This document shows positions 14,867-25,741 of a DNA stretch of 64,000 bases, piece by piece. The translations under genes were made by a program, and so were the position numbers. Positions within the stretch are counted from its first letter, which is position 1; each line of letters begins with the position of its first letter. The stretch is from an uncultured delta proteobacterium (GTDB lineage Bacteria; Myxococcota; Myxococcia; Myxococcales; Myxococcaceae): the NCBI GenBank assembly GCA_963771175.1, contig CAVYSY010000039.1:224001-288000 (forward strand), in the 5' to 3' direction. Below the pieces are notes generated by a model that saw nothing but the letters and a program-made list of their open reading frames with translations, was not told where the DNA came from and did not search any database.

Positions 14867-15829
14867 TCAGCCCTCGCTGCCCCGGTACCACGCCACCAGC
14901 TTCGCCAGCCCCTCCTCCAACGGCACCGAGGGACGGAAACCCGTCTCGCGCTCCAGCGCCGTCACGTCCGCGCACGTCACCTCCAGCTCTCCCGGCTGCG
15001 CGGGCCGCAGCTCCACCCAGGCCTTCATCCCGAGCTGCTCCTCCAGCAGGTCCACGAACCGCGCCATCGACACCGGCGCGCCCCGGCCCACGTTCAGCAC
15101 GCGGTACGGCGGCGTGTCCGCGGGCGGCTTGTCCAGCACCCGCACCAGCACCTCCACCACGTCATCCACGTAGGTGAAGTCGCGCTGCATCTTCCCCTCG
15201 CCGTTCAGCACGATGGAGCGGCCCTCCAGCATCGCCCGGAGGAACAGCATCGGCGACATGTCCGGCCGGCCCCACGGGCCGTACACCGTGAACAGCCGCA
15301 GCCCCGTCACCGGCATCCCGTACTGGTGGCTGTAGACGTGCGCCATCATCTCGTCCGCGCGCTTCGTCGCCGCGTAGAGGCTCAGCGGACGATCCGCGGG
15401 CGCCTGCTCGGAGAAGGGCACCGGCGTGCCCGCCCCGTACACCGAGCTCGACGAGGCGAACACCAGGTGCTTCACCTTCGCCAGCCGGCAGAGCTCCAAC
15501 ACCTGCAGGAAGCCCGTGACATTCGTCTCCGCGTAATCCGGCGCCTCCGAGGGCAGCGAGCGTACGCCCACTCGCGCCGCCAGGTGCACCACGCGCTCGG
15601 GCCTCGCTCCGTCGAAGAGCTCCCGACACGCCTTCACGTCGCGGATGTCCATCCGGTGGAAACCGAAGTTCGTCGCCGCCTTCAGCCGCGACAGCCGCGT
15701 CGCCTTCAGCGTCACGTCTCCCGACGTGTCCAGGTTGTCCAACCCGATGACGGTGTCCCCACGCGCGAGCAGCCGCTCACAGACGTGATACCCGATGAAG
15801 CCCGCTGCGCCCGTGACGAGCACCTTCAT
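14867..15829 (-). CDS. NAD-dependent epimerase (UDP-glucuronate 4-epimerase-like)
   Basis: TGAAGFIG, ASSSSVYG, YAATK, TVYGPWGRPDM and RDFTYVDD. Confidence 0.92.
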   Translation of the reverse strand: MKVLVTGAAGFIGYHVCERLLARGDTVIGLDNLDTSGDVTLKATRLSRLKAATNFGFHRMDIRDVKACRELFDGARPERVVHLAARVGVRSLPSEAPDYAETNVTGFLQVLELCRLAKVKHLVFASSSSVYGAGTPVPFSEQAPADRPLSLYAATKRADEMMAHVYSHQYGMPVTGLRLFTVYGPWGRPDMSPMLFLRAMLEGRSIVLNGEGKMQRDFTYVDDVVEVLVRVLDKPPADTPPYRVLNVGRGAPVSMARFVDLLEEQLGMKAWVELRPAQPGELEVTCADVTALERETGFRPSVPLEEGLAKLVAWYRGSEG

Positions 15830-15869
15830 GACTCACTCCCATCGAGGAGGAGGACCGTGGGTGGGAATA

Positions 15870-15905
15870 CCCTCACCCCACGCCCCTCTCCGAGGCAAGG
15901 GGGAC
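15870..15905. repeat. Degenerate REP-like element (CCCTCACCC..CCCTCTCC..GGGGGAC)
   Basis: Intergenic; resembles the element at 26534-26569. Confidence 0.4.
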
Positions 15906-15920
15906 ATAACAAAGAGTCCG

Positions 15921-17280
15921 TCAGTCCTCGATCTGCGTTTCCAGGAAGGGTCGCTGACGGCCGCGCCAGTCCCTGGAACTCGCGCCTTCCGAGATCAACC
16001 GACCCACGAAGAGCCCCGCCGCGCACGCGTGGTGAACGTTGTCGTGGACGAAGAGTGCACTCCGCCCCAACGGGTAGAGGCCCTCCACCCCACTCAATGC
16101 GGTCAGCGCCCGATCCCGCACCGCGTCGAAGCCCTTGCGGTACAGCGGATAGGCCGTCGCCATGCGCCGCACTCGCGCTCCGAGGATGTCCACTCCCGCG
16201 AGCCCCGCTCGCTCCAGCGCCGGGCGCACCCGCTCCGTGAGCTCCTCCGGCGACGCGCCGCCAGATGGCATCTCCCACCGCGCACGGCAGATCGAAGCCC
16301 ACCACCGTGCGCCCCACGGGTCCCTCACCTCCTGAGAAATTCTTGGCCTCGAAGAGGCGGTTCGCCGGGAGGCGCTCGTCCGCGAAGTAGTGCACGTCCT
16401 GCGACGTGCCCCTGTCCCGCGCGAGCTCCAAGTACAGCAGAGTCAGGGCCCGGTAGCTCAGTCCCTCGGCCGCCTCGGGTCGCCCCGTCCACCCGCACAG
16501 CAGTGGCAGCGGAACCGTCGCCACCACCGACTCCGCCGGCAGCTCGCGCCCCTCCACCACCACGGCCCTCACCCGCCCCCGCTCCAGCACCAGCCCCTCG
16601 GCCGCCGCTCCGCAGCGCACCTCTCCGCCGGCCCGCCGCAGGTTCTCCGCCAGGCCCTCCGCCAGCGCCCCGAAGCCGCCCTCCGGGTAGAAATAGCGCC
16701 GCCCCGCGGACGAGCCTCCGCGCCCGAGCGCCGCGCGCACCACCGCCAGCGGGCCGCCCTTCTGCACCCGCGCCCGGCCGAGCGAAGCGTCCAGCTCCTC
16801 CGGTGGCAGGCCCCACACCTTCCGCGCCGCCGGCTCGTACAGCACCCGCGCCGCATGCCGCCCCAACCGCCTCGCCGCCTCCGCGCCGAAGTGGCCGCCC
16901 TCCGGCGGACGGACCCGCGCCGCTACCGCCGACAGCCCGTGCCTCACCACCTCGACGAGCCCCAACCCCCGGGCAATGCCCAGGAGCGACAGCGGGTACG
17001 GCAGCCTGCGCCCGCCCACGTGCACCATGCCGCTGCGCGCTCGCACTCGGAGCGTGCCGCCCAGGGCCGCCCGGTAGAGTTCCAGCACCTCGGGCCCCGC
17101 CGCGTGGTGCAGTCGGTGCGGGCCGTAGTCCACCTTGAAGCCCGCGAAGTCGAACGAGCCCGAGAGACCCCCCACCTGCGCGGACGCCTCGAGCACCACC
17201 ACCCGCCTGCCGGCCTGGACGAGCGCATGCGCCGCGGCCAGTCCCGACGGCCCCGCGCCGATGACCACCGTCGCGCTCAC
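15921..17280 (-). CDS. FAD-dependent oxidoreductase (protoporphyrinogen oxidase/UDP-galactopyranose mutase-like; frameshift near 16255)
   Basis: IGAGPSGLAAA, VGGLSGS, DYGPHRL, YFYPEGGFG, AYPLY and GRSALF; GTG start overlaps the GT2 stop. Confidence 0.85.
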
Positions 17281-24565: not shown

Positions 24566-24604
24566 CGTCCCCTGCCCCGCTTCTGGCGCGCCATCTGCTG
24601 GGTG

Positions 24605-24628
24605 AATGATTTTGAAAGTCATTCTCAA
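24605..24628. promoter_or_regulatory. Fur-box-like operator (two overlapping inverted repeats)
   Basis: AT-rich island in high-GC DNA. TGAAAGT-C-ATTCTCA at 24613-24627 matches 11/14 of TGATAATnATTATCA. AATGATTTTGAAAGTCATT at 24605-24623 is a near-palindrome. Confidence 0.7.
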
Positions 24629-24726
24629 TAACCCGGAATGGTTGGAATACTACGCCCACGACATAGGGTCAAGCCGAGGTCGAGGCTGGCGCGCCTGGGT
24701 CATCCATGGGACAGAGGGCGGCCATC

Positions 24727-25741
24727 ATGATGATGAGTGCCCTGCTGGTGGTCCTGGCCGCAGCACCCGCTCCACAGGTCCGCACCGAGACGCGTCCGAT
24801 GATGGGGACGACGGTGACGGTGACGCTGGTGGGAGGCACGCCCGAGAAGGCGCGAGAGGGCTTCGACGCGGCCTTCGGGGCCTTCGAGCGCGTCAACCAG
24901 GTGATGAACGAGTGGCGCCCGGACAGCGAGCTGTCGGCGGTGAACCGCAAGGCGGGAGACGGGGAGCTGGTGGCGATTCCCGAGGACCTGTGCGCGGCGC
25001 TGAGGCGCGGGGTGCAGGGGGCGGAGCAGACGGGAGGGCTCTTCGACCCGACATGGGCGGCACTGCGAGGCATGTGGCGCTTCGGGACGGACCTGACCCC
25101 TGCCCTGCCGGACCCGGCGGAGCTGAAGAAGCGGTGCGAACTCATCTCGTACAAGGATCTGGAGTTCGCCCCGGCGGGAGACGGTGGCGAGCCCGGGTGC
25201 AAGGTGCGGCTGAAGCGAGCGGGGATGCAGCTCGGGCTGGGAGGGCTGGCGAAGGGCTGGGGCGTGGACGAGGCGGTGAAGAAGCTGCGAGGGCTGGGCT
25301 TCAAGAACTTCTTCGTGCAGGCCGGGGGAGACTTCTACGCGGGGGGGAAGAAGGCGGGCCGACCGTGGAAGGTGGGGATCCGGGATCCGCGAGGCGAGCG
25401 GGACAGCGTGTTCGCGGTGCTCGAGGTCTCCGACGCGGCCTTCTCGACGAGCGGCGACTACGAGAACTTCTTCATCCTGGAGGGCAAGCGCTACCACCAC
25501 ATCATCGATCCGCAGGACGTGCTACCCGGCGACGGCGTCACGCTCGGCGACGATCCTCGCGCCGAGCGCGGTGGACGCGGAGGTGCTGACGAAGTCCGTG
25601 TTCATCCTCGGAGCCAAGGAGGGACTGGCGCTCGCGGAGAAGCACGGTGCCTCCGCCGTGGTGGTGACGGCGGACAACCAGGTGGTGGTGTCACCCAAGC
25701 TGGAAAAAAAGCTGAAGCGGCTGAGGTCCCCAAACCCGTGA
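24727..25741 (+). CDS. apbE: FAD:protein FMN transferase (frameshift near 25515)
   Basis: MMGTTV, DSELSAVN, FDPT, LGGLAKGWGVD, WKVGIRDP, STSGDYE and YHHIIDP; the corrected frame ends at TGA 25739-25741. Confidence 0.93.

Follow-up and report, generated by a model that had tools for sequence, protein, structure and literature searches.

The DNA analysed here is a stretch of 64,000 nucleotides from an uncultured myxobacterium (contig CAVYSY010000039.1, positions 224,001 to 288,000; G000:C39:224001-288000), referred to below as the window. It contains ten minus-strand genes (14867-24628) that diverge from an apbE gene on the plus strand (24706-25741), with a conserved Fur-type box between them. 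We propose that these genes form an envelope operon, repressed by a Fur-type regulator when iron is plentiful and composed of two separable modules, one built around a secreted protein that is predicted to be flavinylated and the other led by a GT-C membrane glycosyltransferase. Iron acquisition appears to be the most likely role of the locus, a reading in which we place moderate confidence.

Organization of the locus

The source genome measures 9.83 Mb in 58 contigs and is 81.7% complete; the closest named relatives of the window are Archangium and Vitiosangium. An original prediction, made from the letters of this DNA alone, had described ten co-directional genes with start/stop overlaps, a divergent apbE and an AT-rich box, and all of these are present in the sequence. 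The overlaps are TGATG at 23073, ATGA at 19241-19244, ATGA at 17999-18002 and GTGA at 17277-17280. Elsewhere in the block, neighbouring genes stand 59, 7, 5 and 7 bases apart, and the gap from g02 to g01 is about 90 bases. The features of the locus are as follows, from apbE to the last gene of the block:

24706..25741, plus strand: apbE, flavin adenine dinucleotide (FAD):protein flavin mononucleotide (FMN) transferase; Pfam ApbE (PF02424), E 1.3e-64, profile positions 1-220 of 266
24608..24626, no strand assigned: Fur-type box GATTTTGAAAGTCATTCTC, set between the divergent apbE and GT-C genes; it overlaps the initial codons of the longest frame for GT-C
23073..24628, minus strand: g10, GT-C membrane glycosyltransferase (PMT_2/ArnT-like) with a C-terminal periplasmic domain; PMT_2, E 1e-6, 29.5 bits against a cut-off of 26.1
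22387..23073, minus strand: g09, cupredoxin-fold lipoprotein with a C-terminal Cys-rich tail; AlphaFold2 (AF2) model, predicted local distance difference test (pLDDT) 87.8
21257..22327, minus strand: g08, all-helical lipoprotein, distantly DUF4856-like; AF2 pLDDT 93.1, Atlas lead score 0.90
19780..21249, minus strand: g07, outer-membrane porin-like beta-barrel with a signal peptide; weak Porin_O_P match, E 1.6e-5
19241..19765, minus strand: g06, small lipoprotein, with a lipobox in its translation
18627..19244, minus strand: g05, secreted RnfG-like FMN_bind protein; FMN_bind (PF04205), 33.1 bits against a cut-off of 22
17999..18619, minus strand: g04, inner-membrane protein of 206 residues with four transmembrane (TM) segments, PF27139 (Aq_1264_TM); Atlas scores 0.96, 0.95 and 0.95 to PF27139 clusters
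17277..18002, minus strand: g03, GT2 polyprenyl-phosphate glycosyltransferase-like protein with no TM segment; Glycos_transf_2, E 6.7e-21
15921..17280, minus strand: g02, cytoplasmic FAD oxidoreductase of the amine-oxidase/UDP-galactopyranose-mutase superfamily (UDP, uridine diphosphate); Amino_oxidase, E 3.3e-21, profile positions 2-290 of 443
14867..15829, minus strand: g01, sugar-nucleotide 4-epimerase of the short-chain dehydrogenase/reductase (SDR) type, dependent on nicotinamide adenine dinucleotide (NAD); Pfam Epimerase, E 5.6e-61

Contigs from a soil metatranscriptome, belonging to a relative about 92% identical, bridge the g05/g04 and GT-C/g09 junctions. They give a weak hint of expression, as DNA can occur in such libraries.

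Two separable modules joined beyond the genus

The block consists of two separable modules, since each occurs apart from the other in related loci, and their joining is conserved beyond the genus. Module A comprises the GT-C gene, g09, g08 (optional within the genus) and the porin, usually accompanied by the GT2 and FAD oxidoreductase genes. Module B comprises the FMN_bind gene g05, the PF27139 gene g04 and apbE. This division into two modules goes beyond the original prediction, as does the finding that module A is preceded by a Fur-type box even when it stands alone.

A search with the g04 alignment retrieved 44 loci, nearly all labelled Myxococcota, on which all window proteins were scored. 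Seventeen of them carry the GT-C, g09, porin, FMN_bind and g04 genes in the order of the window: 13 from Archangium, Vitiosangium and Cystobacter, one from Vulgatibacter and three from metagenome-assembled genomes (MAGs). The GT2 and FAD oxidoreductase genes follow g04 in all 17 except L054. Of the 13 Archangium-group loci, five have the g08 gene, as does each of the four deeper extended loci, and g06 is found in the Archangium-group loci, in Vulgatibacter and in one MAG locus, at 34-79% identity. Among the 44 loci, the epimerase and a neighbouring DUF481 gene are confined to the Archangium/Cystobacter group. Porin homologues occur in 38 loci, and g04 always stands beside FMN_bind. The more distant g04 loci show the order porin, g04, FMN_bind, apbE. 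The co-conservation anticipated by the original prediction is therefore seen as synteny of the block in the 13 Archangium, Vitiosangium and Cystobacter loci and as a reduced form in more distant Myxococcota, and the junction with a lipid-linked glycosylation module, which it had also proposed, extends past the genus.

A second search, anchored on g09 and directed at metagenome contigs, yielded 18 loci, nine of which repeat the order GT-C, g09, g08, porin. Module A is followed by FMN_bind and g04 in L089, L091 and L092, and by FMN_bind alone in L093, where the contig ends. In L097 the g04/FMN_bind pair lies 5 kb off in divergent orientation, and the DNA retrieved for L094, L098 and L099 showed no such pair. 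The arrangement in L097 (L097:3455-15476) places g04 and FMN_bind divergent from a run of FeoB, GT-C, g09, g08, porin, Fur-family, cation-efflux (CDF) and FAD oxidoreductase genes.

An even sampling of Myxococcota, with 251 genomes from 122 genera, gave g04 in 31 genomes from 22 genera and g09 in nine genomes from 5 genera. Every genome with g09 carries g04 at a distance of 3 to 4.5 kb.

A Fur-type box and the link to iron

The box between apbE and the GT-C gene agrees with the Escherichia coli Fur consensus GATAATGATAATCATTATC at 14 of 19 positions, and it is conserved in five congeners while its flanks vary. The whole genome holds ten places matching this consensus with at most five mismatches, against one in a shuffled genome. 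Seven of the ten fall in GAT-repeat coding DNA or in low-GC contig ends, and three in non-coding high-GC DNA. Besides the box in the window, these three comprise C39:388535 and C39:386357, 140 kb away, which are the two best Fur-consensus matches of the genome. They flank genes for a PepSY_TM protein (FoxB/PiuB-like), a TonB-dependent receptor and a PiuC-like 2-oxoglutarate (2OG)-Fe(II) oxygenase (L023, C39:385500-391500). The genome encodes two Fur-family genes. A scan with an ad hoc 15-mer palindrome had been dropped in favour of the 19-mer consensus, its hits being mostly low-GC contig ends and uninformative places.

The enrichment was also evident across the 44 loci (705,692 bases). With at most six mismatches, 53 box-like places were counted, against one to nine in ten shuffles; with at most five, there were 26, against zero to two. 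In 25 of the 39 assessable g04-anchored loci, a box marks either the beginning of the cluster or a junction within the operon. It also lies just upstream of the GT-C gene in seven of nine g09-anchored loci, including L094, L098 and L099, which come without the flavin pair. The Fur-like box named in the original prediction is thus real, conserved and statistically unusual.

Neighbouring genes point the same way, in keeping with the tie to iron that had been predicted. A Fur-family gene follows g04 in L054, stands beside apbE in L050, precedes the porin gene in L058 and follows it in L097. FeoB precedes the GT-C gene in L097, and FeoB together with a DtxR/FeoA gene precedes the porin gene in L064; in all, six loci have Fur, FeoB or DtxR/FeoA genes beside the cluster, and variants with imelysin and DHOR genes, described below, add to the list. 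From the box and this context, the cluster is probably repressed by Fur.

The box could instead be bound by another member of the Fur family (PerR, Zur or Mur), in which case the system would serve manganese, zinc, copper or oxidative stress. The operators of Fur, PerR, Zur and Mur resemble each other, the Fur-family genes beside the cluster match PerR models as well (63-83 bits), the one in L097 is followed by a CDF gene, and g09 has a cupredoxin fold. However, the three Fur-family neighbours that were tested score best against Fur models (84-113 bits), the same motif marks the TonB receptor/PepSY_TM/PiuC-like cluster elsewhere in the genome, FeoB and DtxR/FeoA genes adjoin the cluster, and the cupredoxin has lost its copper ligands. 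We therefore regard control by a regulator for another metal or stress as very unlikely, and retain Fur as the probable repressor.

The flavin module

The product of apbE has a hydrophobic N-terminus, and its Pfam match covers only part of the profile, owing to an extra base near 25514, discussed below. The g05 protein carries a signal peptide and a TGAT motif, in which Thr165 is the predicted flavinylation residue. The [S/T]GA[S/T] motif is retained in all 18 aligned g05 homologues, which bears out the pairing of ApbE with a conserved FMN-binding substrate put forward in the original prediction. Searched against the PDB, the g05 family profile matched the RnfG chains 9eri_G and 7zc6_G (E 1e-10). 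ApbE would accordingly be expected to attach FMN covalently to Thr165 of g05.

The membrane partner g04 belongs to PF27139; all 120 listed g04 homologues carry PF27139.1 in precomputed annotation. Alignment of 15 sequences, down to 27% identity, revealed the invariant residues Y21, F24, G31, Y54, Y55, G57, Q107, E110, H113, F114, H115, F117, H128, P158 and R162. The three invariant histidines, H113, H115 and H128, are all located on TM2; two of them sit towards the periplasmic end, and the third lies 13 residues further in. On this pattern g04 may be a dimeric b-type cytochrome, with haem held between the invariant histidines. A prediction of the complex between g04 and mature g05 gave scores of 0.01, 0.34 and 0.28, with a median of 0.28 against a mark of 0.32, which speaks neither for nor against a complex. 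An Ala/Pro-rich periplasmic loop of g04 (18366-18420) is polymorphic in length, contigs from other runs being shorter there by 27 or 6 bases, and is missing from distant homologues.

Alternatively, g04 could be an inner-membrane Fe(II) permease whose invariant Glu and His residues line a metal path, rather than an electron carrier. It is the sole inner-membrane protein of the core cassette, in which no recognised transporter is found; Q107, E110, H113, H115 and H128 lie on one helix; and g04 shows no sequence relation to the PepSY_TM cytochromes, the Pfam scans having given no family. A permease, however, would leave the flavoprotein with no encoded electron donor, FeoB already adjoins the cluster in two loci, and the 13 residues that separate His115 from His128 along their shared helix are a spacing typical of bis-His ligation of haem b. 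This assignment thus seems highly improbable, and we keep the electron carrier as the working model for g04.

Module B also appears in a different setting. In L055, L056 and L057, FMN_bind and g04 precede a porin gene, and between them lie genes for a DHOR di-haem protein, an imelysin and an unknown protein. The L057 variant adjoins genes for a type 2A encapsulin shell protein (SrpI-like), a cysteine desulfurase and a rhodanese/HTH/cupin protein.

These variants bear on a second explanation, iron sparing, under which the flavinylated protein would replace an iron-costly periplasmic carrier such as a c-type cytochrome and would serve another redox task, for example the handling of peroxide or other oxidants. 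The DHOR gene paired with FMN_bind and g04 in the three variant loci is di-haem peroxidase-like, the cluster encodes no iron transporter, and flavinylated proteins and cytochromes are presented as interchangeable by Méheust et al. 2021 (PMC8238504). The FeoB, DtxR/FeoA and imelysin neighbours nevertheless indicate iron handling proper, a dedicated porin and three lipoproteins would be superfluous for a swap of carriers, and module A is boxed even where the flavin module is missing. Iron sparing is for us the foremost of the alternatives, though still an unlikely one, and iron acquisition remains the preferred reading of the locus.

Lipoproteins and porin

The AF2 model of g09 retrieved copper nitrite reductase (NirK), amicyanin, plastocyanin and pseudoazurin as its top Foldseek matches, with probabilities up to 1.0 and E values from 5e-4. 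Its 102 homologues have no Pfam family, and 14 of 17 weak PDB profile matches are to amicyanin, plastocyanin or blue-copper proteins. In the alignment of the g09 profile with amicyanin (E 0.09), Asp142, which is invariant, occupies the column of the copper Cys, and the columns of the His ligands are either Thr/Ala or variable. With these substitutions, g09 is not a blue (type-1) copper protein. Its tail contains eight to ten cysteines.

The large lipoprotein g08 is scarce, with 51 cluster representatives among 1.84 billion. It had been predicted to resemble both DUF4856 and FEA1. The first likeness is a distant one at most: three of the 35 members of the g08 family match DUF4856 (PF16148), the best at E 2.2e-7, and the window protein itself gave no match. 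The second found no support, g08 having no Pfam, PDB or imelysin match. The DUF4856 model found no match in this genome or in the control genomes, and a Pfam scan of g08 at E values up to 5 returned a chance match only. The small lipoprotein g06 had no match in Pfam or NCBIfam.

Glycosylation genes

The assignment of g10 to the GT-C enzymes is shared by the GT-C protein of L054, which likewise matches PMT_2. In its first periplasmic loop, the residues D54, D56, N59 and F60 (LPDxDxVNF) and the segment PHxPGYP are invariant in seven orthologues, which speaks for an active enzyme. Compared by sequence with solved GT-C structures, g10 gave no match.

The best NCBIfam matches of g03 are AglJ and dolichyl-phosphate hexose transferase, all equivalogs scoring below their cut-offs, and its closest PDB relatives are DPM synthase (5mlz, E 2.3e-12) and ArnC entries (9bhc; E 8e-11 to 2e-10). 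For g02, a PRK07208-type NCBIfam match (E 1.7e-41) stands beside a weak likeness to UDP-galactopyranose mutase (3hdq, E 2e-9). The closest PDB relative of g01 is 5u4q (E 2.4e-99), followed by the Bacillus cereus epimerase 6zl6 (E 6e-46) and MoeE5 (6kv9, E 3.5e-42), the latter two being UDP-glucuronate 4-epimerases. No flippase-like gene (GtrA, ArnE/F) was detected in the cluster by Pfam scans.

These genes suggest a third explanation, in which the main product of the locus would be a glycan on lipopolysaccharide (LPS) or lipoproteins that alters metal binding at the surface, as a metal-responsive remodelling of the envelope comparable to Arn or Rgt, with the porin, lipoproteins and flavoprotein as accessories. 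In all extended loci the GT-C gene comes first behind the box; its product keeps the acidic motif of loop 1, the GT2 is similar to DPM synthase and ArnC, and the closest solved relatives of the epimerase are of the uronic-acid 4-epimerase type. On the other side, the epimerase occurs in one genus group only, L054 and L097 have no GT2, and no flippase-like gene was found in the cluster. Remodelling would also leave unexplained why a porin, a cupredoxin and, in each of the nine genomes, the flavin module constantly go with it. We consider a primarily glycan-producing operon quite unlikely, and return to iron acquisition as the reading on which the following scheme is built.

Proposed mechanism

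The tests support the module anatomy and a regulation deduced from context. The biochemical steps are inferred, from flavinylation and the binding of haem to the reduction of iron and the target of glycosylation. When iron is plentiful, a Fur-type repressor at the box would silence apbE and the operon; it could shut both because the box lies no more than about 100 bases from both divergent starts. Upon starvation, ApbE would flavinylate g05 at Thr165, and g04, as a dimer with b-type haem, would pass electrons from the inner membrane to g05. The porin g07 would let iron species into the periplasm, where the lipoproteins g09, g08 and g06 would hold the iron and flavinylated g05 would reduce Fe(III) to Fe(II). 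Import of Fe(II) could then proceed through FeoB, whose gene adjoins the cluster in two relatives, or through another transporter encoded elsewhere. The GT-C enzyme would glycosylate a needed envelope component, either a lipoprotein of the locus itself or LPS. Its supply would come from the GT2 and the FAD oxidoreductase, to which this genus adds the sugar-nucleotide 4-epimerase.

A bolder form of this scheme would make the GT-C-led module a new iron-acquisition machinery in its own right. Under iron starvation the GT-C enzyme, facing the periplasm, would place a sugar, possibly a uronic acid made by the linked GT2, FAD oxidoreductase and epimerase, on the envelope or on the lipoproteins of the system, where it would capture ferric iron; the porin and the copper-less cupredoxin would pass the iron on, the flavinylated RnfG-like protein would reduce it for FeoB, and PF27139 would represent a new class of His-ligated cytochrome with four TM segments. 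Taken as a whole, this form is improbable.

A number of results weigh against iron acquisition as the role of the locus. Regarding regulation and expression, consensus scans of two regions found neither a sigma-70 promoter nor a terminator, and the expression evidence consists of the metatranscriptome contigs of a relative. At the threshold used, 14 of the 39 assessable g04-anchored loci have no box, and 14 of the 28 box-positive loci (13 of the 25 anchored on g04, together with the g09-anchored L086) are close kin of one another or of the window. The Fur-family neighbours all score below curated cut-offs, and to this is added the mutual resemblance of Fur-family operators mentioned above. Regarding transport, the cluster of the window contains no gene for an iron transporter of the inner membrane, for a TonB component or for siderophores. 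The independence from TonB and siderophores claimed in the original prediction does not follow from this absence of genes.

The individual proteins add to these points. The Pfam scans of g04 at E values up to 5 returned no family, including PF03929, PF01794 and DUF4405; its comparison with a PepSY_TM protein by hhalign gave a probability of 0.08%; and a PDB profile search found no relative. With just three invariant histidines, all on one helix, no PepSY_TM match and no Pfam family in those scans, the membrane cytochrome announced in the original prediction stays putative. In g09 the copper ligands are lost and no alternative metal site was demonstrated. For g08, an identity as imelysin or EfeO (PF09375) found no support: hhalign against three imelysins gave 3.4%, and the Foldseek matches to 3n8u and 7wgu had E values of about 1. 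A PDB profile search of g08 at E values up to 10 returned nothing, the best Foldseek E value was 0.26, and VIA-align over 48,161 chains placed a designed repeat protein first (Z 8.1) with imelysin outside the best 50. The FEA1-like or iron-binding reading of g08 thus found no support in the tests run.

Relation to known systems and significance

The closest published parallels are the flavinylation-associated iron-assimilation clusters of Méheust et al. 2021 (PMC8238504), which combine FMN_bind with PepSY-like/DUF2271, MsrQ-like/VIT1 or P19/FTR1 proteins. They share with the present locus an extracytosolic ApbE with a secreted [S/T]GA[S/T] substrate, a small membrane partner and a link to iron through regulation and neighbouring genes; like this locus, all of them are bioinformatically inferred and uncharacterised. 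In contrast, the membrane partner here is a PF27139 protein (four TM segments, three histidines), which is none of the five classes set out there nor DUF4405, the Pfam scans here reported no DUF2271, DUF4198, VIT1, P19 or FTR1, and the locus has a dedicated porin and a GT-C-led module. Nor does g04 match any flavinylation-linked membrane class in the accessible text of Méheust et al. 2021 (PMC8238504) or Huang et al. 2024. So far as these sources go, the locus is akin to the published clusters in its logic, with none of their membrane or transporter families.

A second parallel is offered by EfeUOB and the imelysins, which share with the locus a copper-less cupredoxin beside a helical periplasmic protein in an iron-regulated operon. 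EfeO combines a cupredoxin-like domain with an M75 domain, and true imelysin genes take the place of g08 and g09 in L055-L057. In contrast to EfeUOB, g08 has no significant relation to imelysin (hhalign 3.4%; EfeO 7wgu, Foldseek E 1.1), and the Pfam scans of the cluster found no EfeU/FTR1 permease and no EfeB peroxidase.

Lipid-linked periplasmic glycosylation systems (Arn, which modifies lipid A, bacterial PMT, which O-mannosylates proteins, and Rgt, known from galacturonosylation in Rhizobium) have in common with module A and its companions an ArnC/DPM-like GT2, the GT-C loop-1 acidic motif and an epimerase of the uronic-acid type. The locus differs from them in that no flippase gene was found, the GT-C is without a match to solved GT-C structures and an FAD oxidoreductase is added; unlike Arn, it is under iron-type control and not PmrAB-type control.

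A literature search that extended to few subscription journals found nothing on DUF4856, Aq_1264 or PF27139. Within the same scope, searches on ApbE, FMN-binding proteins, porins and iron limitation and on the Fur regulon of Myxococcus found no description of the locus, which agrees with the original prediction that the combination had not been described. The extended form with the GT-C-led module is most likely undescribed.

Flavinylated periplasmic proteins are thought to aid iron assimilation, yet no proposed system has been worked out. The locus offers a compact and strongly conserved test case in myxobacteria that are cultivable and non-pathogenic (Archangium, Cystobacter, Vulgatibacter), with a clear regulatory handle and a membrane partner from PF27139, a family without known function. 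If the proposal is true, a GT-C enzyme heading an iron-regulated operon would tie envelope glycosylation to metal acquisition, and the locus would add a cupredoxin-fold protein in which the copper ligands are exchanged for Asp, Asn and Thr.

Frameshifts in the assembly

Comparison with five relatives revealed that three genes of the locus are broken in frame in this assembly, a point absent from the original prediction. The GT-C gene contains two single extra bases, near 23854 and 23782, and is read in three frames here; g02 has one extra base near 16259 and apbE one near 25514. In the relatives, apbE, the FAD oxidoreductase gene and the GT-C gene are each a single open reading frame, encoding about 337, 495 and 517-519 residues, respectively. 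Because splits of this kind also affect the rpoB and tRNA synthetase genes of the genome and contigs from three DNA runs are without exactly these four bases, the breaks most likely represent insertion or deletion errors of the assembly. One of these runs is about 98% identical across the whole stretch. The Rpb2_6 domain of rpoB is distributed over three frames (G000:C25:96973-98669), and genes for class-I tRNA synthetases are split into up to five pieces. On the same two grounds, a reading of GT-C, g02 and apbE as pseudogenes was rejected. Analyses of these three proteins were performed with intact orthologues, and the true stop of g02 lies near 15921, not at 15826.

Many such frameshifts probably explain the completeness of 81.7%. 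Further examples are found at C40:431921-433581 and, within the window, in the gene of an ABC-F ATPase (12208-13711), which is split over two frames. Some contig ends have 26-43% G+C in a genome of 70% G+C (C11:203000-209031, C51:1-4000 and C52:1-6400) and may be contaminant or chimeric sequence; low-GC ends of this kind gave spurious matches to AT-rich motifs.

Neighbouring genes

The cluster is bordered by the convergent DUF481 gene, the ABC-F ATPase gene, a DUF2379 gene and a RecA-like gene, with no transporter among them. The DUF481 gene (13847-14839, plus strand) encodes an outer-membrane protein and is convergent with the epimerase gene; it lies outside the operon and keeps this place in the Archangium-group loci. 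Downstream of apbE are the gene of the DUF2379 family, which is typical of myxobacteria, and the RecA-like gene of ImuA type (25851-26222 and 28122-28835).

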